The notes under the pieces are model-generated. The model did not search any database, was not told where the DNA came from, and saw only the letters and a list, made by a program, of their open reading frames with translations. DNA of 37,796 nucleotides from a virus (taxonomy: Duplodnaviria; Heunggongvirae; Uroviricota; Caudoviricetes): positions 1 through 37,796 of the IMG/VR virus record IMGVR_UViG_2897375277_000008; one strand, written 5' to 3'. This document shows positions 7,498 to 14,222 of the stretch, in pieces; within the stretch, counting starts at the first letter, position 1, and each line of letters begins with the position of its first letter. The position numbers and the translations under genes were made by a program.

Positions 7498-8576
7498 CAG
7501 AACGGATCCTCCTGTACTCTGGCTTTTTTCTTTTTCCGCGAGCCGGGGGCTTCGGGTTCAGGCAGATAAGCATCAGGCGGGCCGACACGGATTTCCGTCA
7601 GGGTGCCGTTCTGGTCCTGAGTAAACGTGACTTCCGAAACAAGCAGTTCGGTATTGTCGAAACCACAGACCGGATCGAAGACAATCACCCGCTGGTTGGG
7701 CTGCCACAGCGTACCGTTACCCTGTCGCCAGCCCTGCACCACATAGGTGGTTTCATCCGTCCGCGCCGCCCGTTGCCGGGCTTCAAAGTCAGCACGGGCA
7801 ATACAGCCTGCCCCCGTGGCCTGCCCTGTCTGCCTGATATACATCGGACGGTAACGGGCAATAAATGCGTCCTCTGTGCGGGCCCGCAGCGCGGTGGTGG
7901 TGGCCTCACCGAAATCATCGTCGTTTCCGGCACGCTGCCCCGCCACCTGGTAAACTGAAAACCGCTCCCGGATACTCTTCTCCGTATCACAGGAAAGGAT
8001 GTTTTCCCCAAGTACCAGCGCGGTATGTGCCCGCGTTGAGCCAATACCGCCAATCACCAGCCTGCCGTGCGGGTCGTCATAAGCCAGCGCCTGCTGCTGA
8101 CCGAGTATTTTGTTGATTACCTCAATCACCGTTTCACCGTGATCAGGCTGGACATCAGGAATAACACCCGACGGCGCACCGCTGTTCACCACCTCAATGC
8201 CGAAAGGCGCAGCAAGCGCCTGCGCAATCTGTACCAGCGATCGTCCGTTAAACTGTGTCGGTTCGGCTGCACAGTCAATCAGGTCAGCGGTCAGACTACG
8301 TCCGGCAATACCGGTGCTGACCGAACGGGCATCGTAACGAACGGGCGTCGCCTCCACCCAGCCAGTGATCACCAGCTCATCACCAATCAGCACTTCCACT
8401 TTTGAACCGTTTTTAATGCGCGGCTGAAGCGTGGTGATACCCTCATCTCCCGGCCACTGGCGGGTGATCTCCACACTGAAATCCCGCGCCAGTCGTTCAA
8501 CACCGGCACCGATGCGCACCGATGTCCAGCCATTCCACTCCCGGCCATTTACCCGTAGCGTGACGTTATCGTTCAT
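7497..8576 (-). CDS. Baseplate hub / late tail protein (Mu gp44, P2 gpD-like)
   Basis: 359-aa ORF between the gp43-like and gpV-like genes; start overlaps upstream stop. Confidence 0.55.
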   Translation of the reverse strand: MNDNVTLRVNGREWNGWTSVRIGAGVERLARDFSVEITRQWPGDEGITTLQPRIKNGSKVEVLIGDELVITGWVEATPVRYDARSVSTGIAGRSLTADLIDCAAEPTQFNGRSLVQIAQALAAPFGIEVVNSGAPSGVIPDVQPDHGETVIEVINKILGQQQALAYDDPHGRLVIGGIGSTRAHTALVLGENILSCDTEKSIRERFSVYQVAGQRAGNDDDFGEATTTALRARTEDAFIARYRPMYIRQTGQATGAGCIARADFEARQRAARTDETTYVVQGWRQGNGTLWQPNQRVIVFDPVCGFDNTELLVSEVTFTQDQNGTLTEIRVGPPDAYLPEPEAPGSRKKKKARVQEDPF

Positions 8577-9943
8577 TGCACTGGCACCTTCAGAGGGATC
8601 ACCGGCACAAAGCCGGGATGCGTAATGGCATTACGCCGGATAATGTCCCCGTCACGCGCCGCGTTATCAAACCAGGTCGCCGCCAGCACCAGCGCGGGTA
8701 AAACCTCATCCGGCGTGCGCTGAATGATCCGTGCAGACTGTTCAAGGCGCGTGTTGATATCCGCATTCAGATCTGCTTTCACCCGGCGCAGCGCCAGAAA
8801 CAGCGCATCACTGGTTGTACGGGACAACTCCTTATCAATTGCCGTATTCAGTGTGTCGCGAATGTCAGTCAGTTCTTCCCACGTTGGCAGGTCAACCGTG
8901 CTTTTCACCGCCGGTGCATTGTTCAGTGCCGGATGCGTGACGGAAGGCCAGCCAGTGCTCTGCGCGGGTGTTGTTGCCTGCCCCACTGCGGCATTCTGCA
9001 TCACCGCGGAAGTTGTTGGCGCAGGCAATCGGGTGACGGCATACGCCGCTTCGCTGATTGCGGTCGTACGAAGGATGCTGGCAACCACGTTACGCTGCTG
9101 TGTCGCCGTGGCGGTGGTTTTACTGTCCGTTTTCCAGACGCCGCGCGGTTGCAGATCGCTGCCAAGGCTGACACCGGAAAGCGTTTTGATCATGGTGACC
9201 AGGTCGCTGGCGTTACCATAAAGGCGTTTCCCGGTACGCCACATTTTCTGCACCTGCTCAACGAAATTTTTGCCTGACGATGGCGGCGGCAGAAGTACCG
9301 AGATATCCCCCTGCAACAGCCTGGCGGCATCCGATACGGCAGAATCCACCACTTTCATCGCATCAGAAACATACCCAAGCATTGTGCCGGCATTACCGAC
9401 GACGTCGTTCTGCACAAAATCTGCCACGCCATCGATACTGAAACTACTGAAACTGTCACTGATGCAGTCATCCAGTGCAGAACAGGATGACATCAGCGTC
9501 TGCGCCGTCGCCGCACCTGATGTGGGGTAAGAGAGTTCTCCCGCTTCGACAAACTTCAGGTCAAAGCGGACAATACGCCCTTCACTCTTCGATGTGCTGA
9601 CCCGAACCTCTCCGTCAACACAGACTTTCAGCTCACCGTAAGTCGGATGGACAAGCGTGCCAGGACCGGGTTTATTCAGCGCGTCAATCAGGCGATCGCG
9701 CTGGTCAAAGCAGTCATCTCCCACCACATAAGCCGTGATGGACGGGCGGAAAGTGATTTTCCCCAGGTCTTCGGTATAGGGTTTGTCGCGGTTCGGGTAT
9801 TCGTGCGTTTCCACACGACGACCGGTTCCCGTACTTTCTTCTTCAACCTTAAACGGCACACCGCGAAATGACGCGTCCTGAAGTCTGTCTTTCCACGTCA
9901 TATAAACTCCGTACATAAAAAATCCCACCGGAGTGGGACTCAT
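8573..9943 (-). CDS. Mu gpN-like DNA circularisation / tail protein
   Basis: 456-aa ORF directly downstream of the tape measure gene, as in Mu-type tails. Confidence 0.55.
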   Translation of the reverse strand: MSPTPVGFFMYGVYMTWKDRLQDASFRGVPFKVEEESTGTGRRVETHEYPNRDKPYTEDLGKITFRPSITAYVVGDDCFDQRDRLIDALNKPGPGTLVHPTYGELKVCVDGEVRVSTSKSEGRIVRFDLKFVEAGELSYPTSGAATAQTLMSSCSALDDCISDSFSSFSIDGVADFVQNDVVGNAGTMLGYVSDAMKVVDSAVSDAARLLQGDISVLLPPPSSGKNFVEQVQKMWRTGKRLYGNASDLVTMIKTLSGVSLGSDLQPRGVWKTDSKTTATATQQRNVVASILRTTAISEAAYAVTRLPAPTTSAVMQNAAVGQATTPAQSTGWPSVTHPALNNAPAVKSTVDLPTWEELTDIRDTLNTAIDKELSRTTSDALFLALRRVKADLNADINTRLEQSARIIQRTPDEVLPALVLAATWFDNAARDGDIIRRNAITHPGFVPVIPLKVPVQ

Positions 9944-9961
9944 TAACAGATTAATTTTTCA

Positions 9962-11797
9962 TTACCTGCCAAAGCACGTATAGCCAACATCATGGCTGAC
10001 ATCAAAACCGCTGGATCGCGTTTCCATAACCCGCATCCCCGGAGGCGAATTCACAAAAGAGACCTTGATCTCACCATCAACTTTTGGCGCAGAAGCTTTG
10101 TTAATCATGAAGGGATTCGAGCCTGTGGCACCGGAGGCGTTGTTTGACTGAGCCGGATCCACCGCCGGATAAGGTGTGTATCCCCGCGCCGGTATTCCCG
10201 TCCCATAAGCATCATAAGCACCCGCGCCCCACTGCGCAGAGTTAATGGCATCGACCGTGTCACCGGAACTGTCGGTAAACCACTCAATAATTGGCTTCAG
10301 CTTGTCCCACATATCCTGAAACCACTTAACAACCGGTCCCCAGTTATTGATCACCATCCCCAGCGGCGACCAGGCAAAAACCTTCTTAAGAAGTTCCCAG
10401 CCAGTCTCAAAATAAGGACCAATGGTTTCCCAGAGTTTCTTGAAATAAGGTCCGACAACATCCCAATTAGTGATAATTAATCCCGCAGCCAGGGCTATCG
10501 CCGTCGCAATCATGCCAATCGGCGTCATCGACATGATCCTGCTGACAATACTGATGGCACCGCCAACGCCCATCAATCCCAGTTTCAGAATCGCAAGACC
10601 GGCAGCAAGCCCGACGACACCGCGAATAACCCGGGGATTTTCATCCGCAAACTTCGTGAATTTTTCCCCTAACTCCCCCAGCCATTGCGTGATATTTTTG
10701 GCGTCACCAGAAAATGCGCCGCCAATAGCCGCAAGGCCGTTAGTTGCGGTCCCCGTCATTGCCTCCCACAGGTTGGACAGCGTACCAAGCTGGGCCTGAA
10801 CACGTTTATTCAGGCTGGCCTGTTTATTCATCTTCTGCTGGATCTGATCGTAGCCATCCTTTCCTTTATCGATTAGTGCATTGACCACCTGAAGGGTTTC
10901 GGCATCATCACCAAATATTGCCTTAAGTACACCTGTTCGCTTAACGTCGGTCAGTTTTCGCAGCTTTGCCAGTTGCCTGAACATGTTATCAAGACCGCCA
11001 AAACTTCCTTTGCCGTCAGTAAAATCGAGCTGTACCCCGAGTTTCTGGCGGGCCATGACTTTATTGACGTCCCTGATTTTCTTAACGCTTAATCCGGACT
11101 GGATAACTTTTCGCAGGGCATTACCTGCCGACTCCCCGTTCATCCCCATCTGATCCATCATAACGCTGATGGGGGCAAGGCTCTGTGCAGCCTGAAGACC
11201 GTCCTTGTTCACCATCTTCAGAACAGAACTGGTTTTAGTGAAGAAGGACAACATGTTGGTATCGTCAACGCCCAGATAAAACGCCTTCTGGATAGTGTCG
11301 AACAGCCCCATCATGTCTTCTGACGCCGTTCCGGTAGCATCCTGCATCTTTGCAGCAAACTCAGCAGCCGCTTCCGGTGTTTTTTTCAGTTGTACCGCAA
11401 GATAAGCTGTCGCTTTACCCACACCGCCAAGAATGTTTTCTGCCGGGATCCCCTGACGCACCAGCATCTGCATCATGTTCTGGAAATCAGCCGTTGTACC
11501 GGGTAGCTGGTTACCCAGGCCAATAGCCAGTTTATTGATGTCCTGAAAGCGCTTTCCGACCTCACCGTTCGCATCCATCATGGCAACTTTCAGCCCGGTG
11601 GCGGCGTTTTCCTGATCGGCATAAGATTTCAGGGAAAGCGTCAGACCCGCAGCCAGTCCGCCACCAAGCGCCAGCCCACCCTGTGACGCTTCTTCCGCCT
11701 GGCGTTTAAATCCCCGGATTTTCTTTTGCATTTTCGACAGCGCGGGAGAAAGCCTGTCGACACCGGTGATCAACGCCTTAAGCTCAAATTCAGCCAT
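9962..11797 (-). CDS. Tail tape measure protein
   Basis: 611-aa ORF, Ala/Gly-rich with a hydrophobic central segment, following the frameshifted chaperone. Confidence 0.8.
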   Translation of the reverse strand: MAEFELKALITGVDRLSPALSKMQKKIRGFKRQAEEASQGGLALGGGLAAGLTLSLKSYADQENAATGLKVAMMDANGEVGKRFQDINKLAIGLGNQLPGTTADFQNMMQMLVRQGIPAENILGGVGKATAYLAVQLKKTPEAAAEFAAKMQDATGTASEDMMGLFDTIQKAFYLGVDDTNMLSFFTKTSSVLKMVNKDGLQAAQSLAPISVMMDQMGMNGESAGNALRKVIQSGLSVKKIRDVNKVMARQKLGVQLDFTDGKGSFGGLDNMFRQLAKLRKLTDVKRTGVLKAIFGDDAETLQVVNALIDKGKDGYDQIQQKMNKQASLNKRVQAQLGTLSNLWEAMTGTATNGLAAIGGAFSGDAKNITQWLGELGEKFTKFADENPRVIRGVVGLAAGLAILKLGLMGVGGAISIVSRIMSMTPIGMIATAIALAAGLIITNWDVVGPYFKKLWETIGPYFETGWELLKKVFAWSPLGMVINNWGPVVKWFQDMWDKLKPIIEWFTDSSGDTVDAINSAQWGAGAYDAYGTGIPARGYTPYPAVDPAQSNNASGATGSNPFMINKASAPKVDGEIKVSFVNSPPGMRVMETRSSGFDVSHDVGYTCFGR

Positions 11798-11972
11798 GTG
11801 TGCGTTTCTCCTGCTCTATCCTGTTTGCCTGACTGACCAGCAAGGGAATTTCACTGATCGGCATATTCAGCAATTCGAAGGGATTAATGCGCCAGTAGCT
11901 GGCGCAGTCAAAGAAGCGATCAGTGAGGTATTCAGCCGTCAGGCCTGGAGGAAAAAACCGGCCACAAGCCAC
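11790..11972 (-). CDS. Tail assembly chaperone, -1 frameshift extension
   Basis: ORF in the -1 frame overlapping the chaperone 3' end; shift at the heptamer gives ...VAGFF-PPGLTAEYLTDRFF... Confidence 0.6.
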   Translation of the reverse strand: MACGRFFPPGLTAEYLTDRFFDCASYWRINPFELLNMPISEIPLLVSQANRIEQEKRTHG

Positions 11973-12208
11973 GCCGCTGCATTCAGGTCTGCCGGAGACA
12001 TCTGGTCGACAGAGCTTTGCGGCACTTTCGCCAGCCGCACAATGTATTTCGACACCACATGCGCCAGAAGTCTGACGGACTCATCCTGATTCATCTGGTA
12101 GGGATACCCCAGCTCGCGGACATCCTTCCCGGTGGGTTCATCAAACTCCAGTACGGAGAGTGTCTCGCCATGAGCAATAATCGGTTTCTTTAACTCAAGC
12201 TCTTTCAT
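11939..12208 (-). CDS. Tail assembly chaperone (zero-frame product)
   Basis: 89-aa ORF between tail tube and tape measure, ending ...AAWLVAGFFLQA. Confidence 0.65.
   Translation of the reverse strand: MKELELKKPIIAHGETLSVLEFDEPTGKDVRELGYPYQMNQDESVRLLAHVVSKYIVRLAKVPQSSVDQMSPADLNAAAWLVAGFFLQA
11951..11957 (-). other. Slippery heptamer U-UUU-UUC for programmed -1 frameshift
   Basis: Plus strand gaaaaaa; on the mRNA GG-UUU-UUU-C in the zero frame, inside the overlap of the two chaperone ORFs. Confidence 0.6.
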
Positions 12209-12564
12209 TACTGGTAATCCCCTTCTTCACCGTGGAACTCAAGATCAACCGTGCCTTCTTCGGCATTATGGTTCGCTTCGCCGTGCAGCCAGGCAGACGA
12301 CAGTACATAGACCTGACCGTTCGCCAGCTCGGCAGTGATTGTCATCTCATCAGACGAGGTGATTTTGCTCACCGGAAAATTCTTCGGCACCTTGAAGGTC
12401 CCTTTGACATAAGGCGCACGGTGAGTTTCCTTGCGGTCCACTGAACCGTCCAGGCCGATGATGTCATCATTGACCGTCCTGTTCATGGGCACCTCAATGC
12501 CGCCGGTCAGCGATAGCTGCTGACCGTCAATTTTGAAATAACAGGTTCCCCCGATACGGGCCAT
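12208..12564 (-). CDS. Tail tube protein
   Basis: 118-aa ORF immediately after the sheath gene. Confidence 0.65.
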   Translation of the reverse strand: MARIGGTCYFKIDGQQLSLTGGIEVPMNRTVNDDIIGLDGSVDRKETHRAPYVKGTFKVPKNFPVSKITSSDEMTITAELANGQVYVLSSAWLHGEANHNAEEGTVDLEFHGEEGDYQ

Positions 12565-14060
12565 TATGCGGACTCCTCTGAATACTGAAGACGGAACTGG
12601 TTAACCACGGCAAAGACACGCAACTGGTTAACATAGTCAGGCGGGAACAGCGTGTTCAGGCGGTTCGGATCGCTGGCATCACGCTCCACAACCAGGTACT
12701 GCTTAAAAAGTTCGTAGTTTTCCACGATCCCCGCACGCTCAAGCTGACGGTAGGTTGCCAGCAGTTCCCCTTTGATCACCGCCTGGGTGACAATCGCCTG
12801 ACCGGGACCAAAGCGGGTACCGTCGCTGGCAAGCTTGTGACGCCCGTACTTACTGGTAATGACGGATTTCAGTTTGCGCAGTACATACGCACTGGTATGC
12901 AGCGTCTCGCTGTCGAGGTAGCTGTTATCCGCAACCCCGTAAGCGTTTTTCCTGTACGTGGTGACATCACGCTGAATGCGCAGTACCCCGCTTTCGACAT
13001 ACGCCGTTGCCACGCCATGAGACAGCAGGGTCTGTTGTTCGGTCATCGTGAACCGTTTCCCCTTCGGCGCAGGCAGCATACCCACCAGCTCACCGGTCTG
13101 CGTGGGACGTGCCGGATCGTTGCGGATAAACACCGCTGCGCGGGCGGTACGGCTTGCCGCCAGCTCGTCGGCAGGCGTCTGGGTCTCTTTTTCGTACCCC
13201 GCCAGGGTAATGTGCTGCTGGTTAAACTGGTCACCTGCGGTCACCAGTTCTGACAGCGTGCCGATCTTTGCCGTATACACATGACCATACAGCTGACGCG
13301 CATAGCTCCAGCGACCGCTGGTATCGTTCATCTCGGTCACCAGCGTGTTAACGGAGGCCGTGTCGTTGAACGGCAGGCCGATATAATCAAACGGCTCATC
13401 CGCCATTGCAGCCACCGCGCCGGTGAGAACAGGAGAACCCGTTCCGGCGGTACCCGTCGCCACGGCAATCTGTACGCCCGCTGGCAGCACTTCGCCCCCA
13501 CCAAAGCCGTAGTAATTGAGGCTGACAGGAATTTCATTCCCGCAAAGCCCCTTATGACGCGCGGTCAGTGTGACCACGCCAGCCGAAGATGAAGCTGTAA
13601 ACGGCAGAGTCGGAACGGCATTGATGGCATCCTGGATACTGCCGGCAATCGTCGCGACGTTATCGCCATTGGTCACCGGTGCCTGCACGCGGGTACGTCC
13701 CACATAAACATTCACCGTGCCGGTTTCGGTTGCCGCCCCGGTCACCGTCAGCGTAACCGTTGCCGCCGCGCCTGTGGCTTCCGGAACGGCAATCACATAC
13801 AGCTCGCCAAACGGGTCAGTCTGGCGATAAGCCTCGACCATACGCGCCAGCTGACTTCCCGCACCACAAATCTGGAGTGCATAGTCTGCCGACGGCATCA
13901 GTACCAGACTGTTGGCAACAATCTCTGCACCGTTATTGGCATGACCAATCAGCAGCGATGCTCCGCTGTCCTGTGCAGTATTCGCCGCCTGGTTATCCAT
14001 TTCCGCATAAAACAACGGAACCAGCGTATTCGACGGAATGGTGTTAAAGCTTATCGTCAT
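12564..14060 (-). CDS. Contractile tail sheath protein
   Basis: 498-aa ORF MTISFNTIPSNTLVPLFYAEMDN..., sheath-like; followed by tube, chaperone and tape measure. Confidence 0.85.
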   Translation of the reverse strand: MTISFNTIPSNTLVPLFYAEMDNQAANTAQDSGASLLIGHANNGAEIVANSLVLMPSADYALQICGAGSQLARMVEAYRQTDPFGELYVIAVPEATGAAATVTLTVTGAATETGTVNVYVGRTRVQAPVTNGDNVATIAGSIQDAINAVPTLPFTASSSAGVVTLTARHKGLCGNEIPVSLNYYGFGGGEVLPAGVQIAVATGTAGTGSPVLTGAVAAMADEPFDYIGLPFNDTASVNTLVTEMNDTSGRWSYARQLYGHVYTAKIGTLSELVTAGDQFNQQHITLAGYEKETQTPADELAASRTARAAVFIRNDPARPTQTGELVGMLPAPKGKRFTMTEQQTLLSHGVATAYVESGVLRIQRDVTTYRKNAYGVADNSYLDSETLHTSAYVLRKLKSVITSKYGRHKLASDGTRFGPGQAIVTQAVIKGELLATYRQLERAGIVENYELFKQYLVVERDASDPNRLNTLFPPDYVNQLRVFAVVNQFRLQYSEESA

Positions 14061-14222
14061 CGGTATTCACCTTTTTATTCACGCGCCGGATATCACCCGC
14101 TGCTTCACGGCGCAGCCAGTAGTTGTTCTCGTCAACATTTCGCCCTTCGGCGGGCAAAAGGTCGCCGCGGGCAGGGTCAGGAACTGACCGCCCTTTAACA
14201 GGTTTGACAAACATGAGGATCC

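Follow-up and report, generated by a model that had tools for sequence, protein, structure and literature searches.

A probable P2-type programmed -1 frameshift in the tail assembly chaperone gene of an SfV-like prophage

Introduction

A conserved frameshift in the tail assembly chaperone genes is reportedly shared by long-tailed phages and is said to have been described by Levin and colleagues in 1993 and by Xu, Hendrix and Duda in 2004, 2013 and 2014. In lambda and other long-tailed phages, the major tail or tube gene and the tape measure gene enclose two overlapping open reading frames (ORFs), and a heptamer near the end of the first ORF directs a -1 shift at low frequency, from which a short and a long protein that share their N-terminus arise, G and GT in lambda (PMC5009743). 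The E / E+E' pair of phage P2 is likewise attributed to a programmed -1 frameshift, by Christie et al. (2002) as cited in PMC3091744 and in the annotation of NC_001895, and a 2- to 3-fold higher frameshift efficiency is given for P2 (PMC5009743). For Mu, the tail assembly chaperone gp41 is credited with a -2 frameshift (Xu et al., 2004, as cited in PMC2628397 and PMC5009743).

The DNA analysed here, referred to as the window in its full length of 37,796 nucleotides, is an SfV/SfI/SfII-type prophage, that is, an SfV-like prophage of Escherichia coli and Shigella. An earlier reading of its sequence alone (the sequence-only reading) had proposed a G/GT- or E/E'-type frameshift in the tail assembly chaperone gene, and genomic context, membership of the family PF10109, a frozen heptamer, coding in the -1 frame only and alignment with the P2 site all argue for this proposal. 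Because gene order, family assignment and comparative sequence evidence agree, we consider a programmed -1 ribosomal frameshift of the G/GT or E/E+E' type by far the best reading of the locus, with a probability of roughly 0.87. In the following sections we describe the gene and its predicted slippery site, weigh the alternatives and compare the locus with the known systems.

The chaperone gene and its neighbours

The late tail operon occupies the minus strand, where the sheath gene is followed by those for tube, chaperone and tape measure. The chaperone gene (12208..11939, minus strand), the counterpart of P2 E and lambda G, has a zero-frame product of 89 aa, which ends in AAWLVAGFFLQA directly before the stop. 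Together with the overlapping second ORF it sits between the tail tube gene upstream (12564..12208, minus strand; PF10618 Tail_tube, E 2.4e-33) and the tape measure gene downstream (11797..9962, minus strand; PF10145 PhageMin_Tail, E 5.2e-27), the latter being so annotated in SfV and in E. coli H22. The 89-aa product matches the Pfam family PF10109 (Phage_TAC_7) with an E-value of 2.4e-15 over residues 4-86, covering profile positions 2-78 of 79 and scoring 56.7 bits against a cut-off of 25; it also matches phrog_166 ('tail protein', E 4e-23), and the protein of E. coli H22, which is 100% identical here, bears the PGAP name 'phage tail assembly protein'. The neighbouring genes are Mu-like and comprise sheath L, tube M, a gp38-like DUF2635 gene, tape measure and the DNA circulation protein N. 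No solved structure matched the chaperone family at E-values up to 1, and an AlphaFold model of the fused protein, built without an alignment, had a pLDDT of 45.6, too low for the model to be of use. Scans of the window for tRNAs and Rfam families returned no matches.

The slippery heptamer and the predicted fusion

The sequence-only reading had placed the chaperone ORF at 11939..12208 and an overlapping -1-frame ORF at 11790..11972, and both sets of coordinates hold, on the minus strand. Within the overlap, the plus strand reads GAAAAAA at positions 11951..11957, giving TTTTTTC on the coding strand (11957..11951), and the zero-frame codons GCC GGT TTT TTC CTC CAG GCC TGA set this heptamer in the X_XXY_YYZ phase (T_TTT_TTC), with GGU UUU UUC encoding G84, F85 and F86. 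The slippery heptamer U-UUU-UUC that had been named at this position can thus be read directly, in sequence as well as in phase, and it lies 16 nt before the chaperone stop (TGA, 11941..11939). Translation across a -1 slip yields the predicted sequence ...VAGFF-PPGLTAEY..., as had been foreseen, within a fused product of 139 aa (about 15.7 kDa) whose predicted junction peptide spans ...LVAGFFPPGLTAEYLTDR. Because neither G nor GT is found in mature lambda virions (PMC5009743), virion mass spectrometry is ill-suited to the detection of this product, and lysates of infected cells or of induced lysogens are the right material.

The extension in the -1 frame (11951..11790, minus strand), the putative counterpart of P2 E' and lambda T, comprises 53 codons and a TGA stop (PPGLTAEYLTDRFFDCASYWRINPFELLNMPISEIPLLVSQANRIEQEKRTHG). 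This stop overlaps the start codon of the tape measure gene as ATGGCTGA (11797..11790, minus strand), a layout often seen where translation is coupled, and the AGGAG Shine-Dalgarno (SD) sequence of the tape measure gene (11812..11808, minus strand; anti-SD duplex -7.4 kcal/mol) lies within the extension ORF.

The heptamer alone is not unusual, as TTTTTTC occurs 19 times on the two strands of the window against 9.9 copies expected. An in-phase copy within the last 90 nt is found in 7 of the 101 window ORFs of at least 80 aa in six frames, and among these seven it is only in the chaperone gene that the -1 frame runs on past the stop for 40 codons or more.

Conservation among relatives

The comparison set consisted of 22 distinct genome loci with 38-100% chaperone protein identity, which range from E. 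coli to Derxia and include Shigella, Edwardsiella, Citrobacter and Pantoea, among others; the four further phages AH07, F1055, phiP27 and BgVeeders33 were compared as well. An in-phase slippery sequence in the ORF overlap, T_TTT_TT[C/T] at the G-F-F position, is kept in all 22 distinct loci and in all four further phages, and TTTTTTC is kept in 80 of 80 IMG/VR loci. The T run numbers seven rather than six in four of the loci (L100, L101, L105 and L106) and in F1055 and phiP27. The codons of the heptamer are frozen, with GGT and TTT each present in 22/22 loci, while 13 other invariant or nearly invariant degenerate residues use two to five synonymous codons each. Among relatives, the distance from heptamer to zero-frame stop varies between 16 and 73 nt, and the -1 frame always extends to the tape measure start. 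The short product accordingly measures between 88 and 109 aa, whereas the length of the fused product stays within 136-148 aa, and all related loci have the same kind of stop/start overlap or a gap of 2-4 nt.

The extension is conserved protein-coding sequence, with a coding signature in the -1 frame only. In 10 of 10 ungapped relatives, the -1 frame carries no stops and the other frames carry one to six. Codon differences in the -1 frame are 617 synonymous versus 548 non-synonymous (53% synonymous), compared with 98/1067 and 112/1038 in the other two frames (8-10% synonymous). The motif F-D-C-A-x-Y-W-R-I-N-P...Q-A-N-R-I is conserved, protein motifs of the extension are kept out to Pantoea, Burkholderia and Derxia, and conservation of the extension persists down to 38% identity of the N-terminal domain. 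The extension matches phrog_32181 (E 3e-41), and searches of the Pfam and NCBIfam families returned no match for it. In particular, hmmscan at E-values up to 10 found no match to PF06528 (Phage_P2_GpE, the P2 E' domain), either with the fused protein or with four diverse extensions; P2 E+E', used as a positive control, scored 1.2e-21.

Proposed mechanism and alternative explanations

Judging from the ORF and its family assignment, most ribosomes would terminate at the TGA at 11941..11939 and release the 89-aa chaperone. A minority would slip back by one nucleotide with UUU in the P site and UUC in the A site of U_UUU_UUC, whereupon both tRNA-Phe(GAA) would re-pair with UUU and 53 more codons would be read in the -1 frame. 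This slip is predicted to yield a 139-aa protein that keeps the N-terminal domain of the short form and gains a different C-terminal domain. If the locus works as lambda G/GT and P2 E/E+E' do, the N-terminal domain present in both forms would coat the tape measure protein, the extension, found in the rare long form alone, would bring in tail tube subunits, and the mRNA itself would thereby set a low and constant proportion of long to short product. For genes of this class, tail assembly is predicted to require both of the proteins that share an N-terminus, made at a constant ratio. The stop of the long form, situated on the tape measure start and just 3' of AGGAG, may in addition couple some of the tape measure translation.

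The downstream ORF might instead be a small gene in its own right, with its start at GTG 11972 or at another internal codon. An ORF tool does list a -1-frame ORF of 60 aa from this GTG (minus strand, 11972..11790), the record of vB_EcoM-689R6 (60 aa) and several protein database entries have it as a stand-alone 'hypothetical protein', and the ORF has a PHROG family of its own, phrog_32181. However, GTG 11972 has no SD pairing: its anti-SD duplex energy is +0.4 kcal/mol, compared with -7.9 kcal/mol at the chaperone start and -7.4 kcal/mol at the tape measure start. No other start codon precedes the conserved part in this frame. Moreover, 12 of the 22 distinct related loci have no ATG, GTG or TTG in the -1 frame before the conserved motif, and the pairing at such starts, in the relatives having one, amounts to 0.3 to -3.1 kcal/mol. 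The second ORF thus overlaps the first in another frame and is devoid of initiation signals of its own, in line with the earlier statement that it has no plausible independent start. A separate gene, which we regard as very improbable, would also leave unexplained why the conserved protein region starts directly at the heptamer, why the GGT and TTT codons are frozen and why the fused length is constant. Scarcely credible is the complete absence of recoding, by which the 141-nt stretch between chaperone and tape measure genes would be an untranslated spacer and the heptamer a by-product of Gly-Phe-Phe coding. The abundance of TTTTTTC in the window and the lack of annotation for this stretch from every annotation pipeline inspected would suit such a view, but it is contradicted by the strong frame-specific coding signature, by a -1 frame that is stop-free across relatives, by protein motifs retained in distant genera and by the synonymous-site constraint on the heptamer.

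The identical long protein (..GFFPPGL..) would also result from transcriptional slippage, if RNA polymerase added one U on the T6 run. The site is indeed a homopolymer, lengthened to seven T in the loci and phages named above, and keeping GGT and TTT under selection makes the run longer, an effect that suits either mechanism equally. Productive slippage by bacterial RNA polymerase, however, generally needs about 8-9 or more A/T, as in IS elements, Thermus dnaX and Shigella mxiE, and runs of six give very little of it, which counts against this explanation. The scarcity of UUUUUUU in E. coli genes has been ascribed partly to transcriptional slippage, but the same study measured U_UUU_UUC as a ribosomal -1 site in E. 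coli (PMC4066793), and the homologous P2 site (T6G) is described as translational, at least in its annotation and in papers citing the original work. Transcriptional slippage is therefore considered improbable, and a programmed ribosomal frameshift is the reading followed below.

Stimulatory signals and efficiency

The sequence-only reading had suggested a check for a downstream stimulatory RNA structure; no conserved one was found. The 70 nt that follow the heptamer fold differently from one relative to another, RNAalifold detected no conserved helix near the site in 18 diverse sequences (consensus -3.66 kcal/mol), and the window sequence 3' of the heptamer folds no better than its shuffles (z-score -0.41), on which grounds a conserved downstream RNA stimulator was rejected. 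Upstream of the heptamer, an SD-like G-rich stretch is present in many relatives, reaching -11.5 kcal/mol in locus L098, and hints at an upstream SD-like stimulator; in the window this stretch is at background level (-2.5 kcal/mol). A perfect 8-bp hairpin (11906..11888) lies 44 nt downstream of the heptamer.

In E. coli, U_UU.U_UU.C is functional as a -1 heptamer, with an efficiency of 0.121% by itself, which the IS911 stimulator raises to 0.89% and that of IS3 to 7.6% (supplementary table of PMC4066793), and the type H_HH.U_UU.Y belongs to the most efficient heptamer classes (PMC4066793). Because no conserved RNA stimulator is evident, the efficiency at the present site is probably low, between 0.12% (bare heptamer, reporter) and the several percent reported for P2, and a useful efficiency is an assumption, given that the SD-like stretch is at background in the window and the bare heptamer yields about 0.1%. 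Since these reporter values are so low and no classical stimulator occurs in the window, the site might depend on an unrecognised enhancer, which we consider unlikely; candidates would be the nascent peptide ...W-L-V-A-G-F-F, the 3' context CCUCCAGG or the hairpin at 11906..11888, which could make one ribosome pause and the next one queue behind it near the heptamer. If this were true, SfV/P2-type sites would provide a compact model of stimulator-independent or collision-assisted bacterial -1 frameshifting.

Annotation and significance

No joined CDS for a frameshift product is present in the records of SfV, SKA5, AH07, F1055, phiP27, BgVeeders33 and vB_EcoM-689R6 or in the PGAP annotation of E. 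coli H22, and for SfI and SfII no frameshift product is among the features listed under the match. In the inspected records about 140 nt are left as a gap with no explanation, in place of which vB_EcoM-689R6 has its stand-alone protein. The literature searched, which lacked the genome paper of SfV as well as Christie et al. (2002) and Xu et al. (2004), yielded no explicit description of the frameshift in SfV, ST64B or related phages. The chaperone region is present in 1086 of 5426 complete E. coli genomes, or about one in five. The predicted 139-aa product would complete the tail assembly gene set of the serotype-converting Shigella phages, a medically relevant group. The main value of the finding lies in annotation, and knowledge of frameshifting or of tail assembly as such is unchanged.

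Comparison with Mu, lambda and P2

The genes surrounding the chaperone gene resemble those of Mu, and the Pfam description of PF10109 names gp41 alongside P2 E. Mu gp41, however, has 144 aa, belongs to phrog_508 and has its extension in the +1/-2 frame, whereas the extension here is in the -1 frame and the +1 frame closes 7 nt past the chaperone stop. Among most relatives, the +1 frame closes within 7-82 nt, and in the Derxia locus L107 it does so after 154 nt. Comparison of an SfV-type chaperone profile, itself shallow, with the single Mu gp41 sequence revealed no direct similarity. In this tail module, Mu-like genes for sheath, tube and baseplate would go together with a P2-type -1 site and not with the -2 site of Mu.

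With lambda and other long-tailed phages, the locus shares the two overlapping ORFs between tube and tape measure genes, the heptamer shortly before the first ORF ends and, by prediction, the low-frequency -1 shift that yields a short and a long protein of common N-terminus. It differs from lambda in that chaperone and extension have no detectable sequence similarity to G or T, in its heptamer, which is G_GGA_AAG in lambda, and in its contractile tail.

The likeness to P2 is closest. Both N-terminal domains match PF10109 over profile positions 2-78, both genes are positioned after the tube and before the tape measure gene, and reciprocal cross-matches link the chaperone and P2 E to phrog_166 and phrog_103. 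Because these Pfam and PHROG matches are shared, the predicted chaperone domain is homologous to P2 E, a closer relation than the 'analogous' of the sequence-only reading; single-sequence profile comparisons are too shallow for this purpose. The T6N heptamers occupy one alignment column at V/A-G-F (GGT TTT TTC here, GGT TTT TTG in P2) with a -1 shift in both, product sizes are 89/139 aa here and 91/142 aa in P2, and the long-form stop overlaps the tape measure ATG in each case (ATGGCTGA here, ATGAGTAA at P2 E+E'/T). For P2, PMC3091744 reports no recognised RNA structure downstream, and none that is conserved was detected here either. There are also differences: the heptamer ends in C or U here and in G in P2, so that the A-site codon is Phe UUC instead of Leu UUG; a strong SD-like AAGGTGG stands just 5' of the P2 heptamer and is lacking in the window; and the remainder of this tail module (sheath, tube, DNA circulation protein) resembles that of Mu and not that of P2. 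In contrast to P2 E', the extension has no PF06528 match, and it resembles E' weakly, though collinearly (hhalign E 0.0026 over 32 columns, probability 11%). Taken by its sequence, the putative site is an ordinary example of a well-known kind of frameshift, in the position experimentally shown for P2 E/E+E'.

Genomic context of the tail assembly chaperone

The interval 9900-14100 shares 98% identity with the Shigella/Enterobacteria phages SfI, SfII and SfV, and positions 11700-12300 match a prophage of the E. coli H22 chromosome at 100% identity; 1086 of 5426 complete E. coli genomes contain DNA resembling this shorter interval. The minus strand encodes the tail genes, which include the tail sheath (14060..12564; PF04984, PF17482, PF17481), the tail tube (12564..12208; PF10618), an 89-codon chaperone ORF (12208..11939) matching PF10109, 'Phage tail assembly chaperone proteins, E, or 41 or 14' (E 2.4e-15), the tape measure protein (11797..9962; PF10145) and a Mu N-like DNA circulation protein (9943..8573; PF07157). 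The longest ORF of the latter spans 456 aa, but the RefSeq annotations have it shorter, at 1344 nt in SfV and 1329 nt in E. coli H22, and its true start is probably an internal ATG (MTWKDRLQ...).

The slippery heptamer and its reading frames

The coding strand at the 3' end of the chaperone reads GCC GGT TTT TTC CTC CAG GCC TGA, and the heptamer at plus-strand coordinates 11951..11957 is thus T_TTT_TTC in the X_XXY_YYZ phase. Reading in the -1 frame meets no stop from 123 nt 5' of the heptamer until a TGA at 11792..11790, and a -1 slip is predicted to yield a product of 139 aa, MKEL...WLVAGFF-PPGLTAEYLTDRFFDCASYWRINPFELLNMPISEIPLLVSQANRIEQEKRTHG. The extension ends in ATGGCTGA and overlaps the ATG of the tape measure gene (11797..11795), which follows the AGGAG of that gene by 10 nt; the +1 frame is shut 7 nt beyond the chaperone stop. 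The sequence-only reading had placed the heptamer in the overlap of the chaperone and a -1-frame ORF, with a fused product ...VAGFF-PPGLTAEY..., which is exactly what the coding strand gives.

The heptamer alone is not rare: TTTTTTC occurs 19 times on both strands of the whole window, whereas dinucleotide-preserving shuffles lead one to expect 9.9 and stayed below 19 in all 100 cases. A six-frame screen of the 101 ORFs of 80 aa or more singled out the chaperone alone as combining an in-phase heptamer within the final 90 nt with a -1 frame that remains open over 40 codons or more beyond the stop; the other TTTTTTC copies went unflagged in this screen.

Comparative evidence for programmed frameshifting

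Scanning one genome per species with an alignment of chaperone homologues as query yielded 23 loci (38-100% protein identity) from Shigella, Edwardsiella, Buttiauxella, Citrobacter, Kluyvera, Erwinia, Pantoea, Kosakonia and the betaproteobacterium Derxia. Querying phage genomes by tblastn with the fused protein brought in SfIV, ST64B, phiP27, F1055, Pantoea AH07, Edwardsiella EPP-1 and Burkholderia BgVeeders33, in each of which the match is split into two pieces, i.e., two frames. All loci examined carry an in-phase T_TTT_TTC or T_TTT_TTT at a conserved G-F-F, and their -1 frame remains open up to the tape measure start. The zero-frame stop lies 16 to 73 nt 3' of the heptamer. Short products range from 88 to 109 aa, and fused products keep to 136-148 aa.

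Beyond the zero-frame stop, 10 ungapped relatives have no stop in the -1 frame, where codon differences are 617 synonymous to 548 non-synonymous; the two other frames give 98/1067 and 112/1038 and contain 1-6 stops. The extension carries the motif F-D-C-A-x-Y-W-R-I-N-P...Q-A-N-R-I, of which A, W, P, R and I are invariant in 15 diverse sequences. In 22 distinct sequences the heptamer's Gly and first Phe codons are GGT and TTT without exception, and the 13 other invariant or near-invariant degenerate chaperone residues all use 2-5 synonymous codons; TTTTTTC is kept in 80/80 close IMG/VR loci. Taken together, these patterns show that the heptamer is under selection as nucleotide sequence and the -1 frame as protein. 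Just these two signals are expected from a programmed frameshift, but not from a spacer or an independent gene.

The downstream ORF could instead be a separate small gene, as listed in a single GenBank record, that of vB_EcoM-689R6, and in a few database entries, where it is a stand-alone hypothetical protein. However, the sole -1-frame start codon 5' of the conserved part is a GTG at 11972, for which pairing of the preceding 17 nt with the anti-Shine-Dalgarno sequence has an energy of +0.4 kcal/mol, compared with -7.9 and -7.4 kcal/mol for the genuine chaperone and tape measure starts, and 12 of 22 distinct related loci lack any ATG, GTG or TTG from the upstream -1-frame stop to the conserved motif. 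This makes independent initiation very unlikely, in line with the earlier remark that this ORF has no plausible start of its own, and with the -1-frame coding signature and the frozen GGT TTT codons also speaking against it, a separate gene is highly improbable. The same signature, codons and start-codon analysis make an untranslated spacer scarcely credible. RNA polymerase slippage on the T6-T7 run would produce an identical protein, and the codon choices suit it equally well, but we consider it unlikely because such short runs are poor slippage sites in bacteria and the homologous site of P2 is described as translational. A programmed -1 frameshift in the tail assembly chaperone, as originally proposed, is hence the interpretation that the comparative evidence supports.

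Two prophage contigs that are otherwise 99% identical (IMG/VR UViG_2585427747_000001, L005:1735-1775; IMG/VR UViG_2585427730_000011, L006:1735-1775) carry GGG for GG immediately before the T6 run (GGCTGGGTTTTTTCC). The extra G joins chaperone and extension in one 139-codon frame, so that only the long form is predicted, constitutively; this reflects either a sequencing error in the homopolymer or a naturally occurring mutant, which should be tail-defective. A few metagenome-derived 'fused' chaperone entries (P0013, P0016, P0127) have 137-139 aa; P0013 and P0127, both aligned, switch frame at positions other than the heptamer and for this reason look like assembly indels and not genuine fusions.

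Efficiency and stimulatory elements

E. coli decodes UUU and UUC alike with its one tRNA-Phe (anticodon GAA), which allows both tRNAs to re-pair well after a slip. U_UU.U_UU.C is a measured -1 heptamer in this species (Sharma et al., 2014, PMC4066793, supplementary table), its shift frequency being 0.121% for the heptamer alone and rising to 0.89% when the IS911 stimulator is added and to 7.6% with the IS3 pseudoknot; the same paper places H_HH.U_UU.Y among the efficient classes. A conserved downstream stimulatory RNA structure, for which the sequence-only reading had advised checking, was not found: folds 3' of the heptamer vary among relatives, RNAalifold on the relatives returned no conserved structure near the site, and the window sequence 3' of the heptamer folds no better than shuffles. 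A Shine-Dalgarno-like G-rich element 5-12 nt 5' of the heptamer is present in many relatives and P2 (GGGAGGTGG at L098:1733-1751, a related locus; AAGGTGG at L110:2665-2685, P2) and absent in the window, which has GTGG only; it may be a variable upstream stimulator of the dnaX kind. P2-like phages lack a recognisable downstream structure (PMC3091744) and yet, according to PMC5009743, reportedly shift 2- to 3-fold oftener than lambda with its ~1 in 30. On this basis, an efficiency of ~0.1-10% is plausible for the chaperone site.

A perfect hairpin of 8 bp with a 3-nt loop (UGCGCCAG-CUA-CUGGCGCA; 11888..11906, minus) lies 44 nt 3' of the heptamer, within the conserved C-A-S-Y-W-R codons of the extension, and is too distant for a classical frameshift stimulator. 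It is kept in close relatives and in some distantly related loci (L103, L104) but broken in others (L097, L099, L102); its conservation may be either RNA-level or protein-level.

Annotation status and relation to known systems

Frameshifts of this class are textbook knowledge, known from lambda G/GT and P2 E/E+E' and surveyed by Xu et al. (2004). A fusion annotation is absent in SfV RefSeq, SKA5, AH07, F1055, phiP27, BgVeeders33, vB_EcoM-689R6 and the PGAP-annotated E. coli H22, and no fusion product appears among the features listed for the matches to SfI and SfII. In the literature searched there was no description of the frameshift in SfV-type phages; Xu et al. (2004), Christie et al. (2002) or the SfV genome paper may already list the site. 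The practical value lies in annotating a missing gene of a very common prophage family.

The annotation of P2 (NC_001895) lists E (91 aa) and E+E' (142 aa), the latter as a joined CDS with '-1 translational frameshift', between the tube gene FII and the tape measure gene T; the site is GGT TTT TTG (V-G-F-L), and the E+E' end ATGAGTAA overlaps the T start. P2 E and the window chaperone both match PF10109 over profile positions 2-78, and have reciprocal PHROG matches (phrog_166/phrog_103), and when the two are aligned jointly, their heptamer G-F codons share one column. This makes the chaperone a P2 E homologue with its site at the same position. The proposed analogy to P2 E/E' accordingly holds as homology for the chaperone domain, and the extension is more diverged. 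The two extensions are collinear (D-x-A-x-x-[FW]-x-x-x-P-x-E-L...A-x-R), but the profile comparison is weak (E 0.0026, 32 columns, probability 11%), and the window extension gives no match to PF06528, the Pfam E' model, to which P2 scores 1e-21. The sheath, tube and baseplate genes of Mu resemble those of the window prophage, whereas the extension of Mu gp41 (144 aa, phrog_508) lies in the +1/-2 frame and that of the window in the -1 frame; the gp41 frame agrees with the -2 shift that Xu et al. (2004) ascribed to Mu, according to PMC2628397 and PMC5009743. By analogy with the lambda model, as summarised in PMC5009743, the tape measure protein would be bound by the short form and by the N-terminal portion of the long one, the extension would bring in tube subunits, and neither form would be part of the virion.
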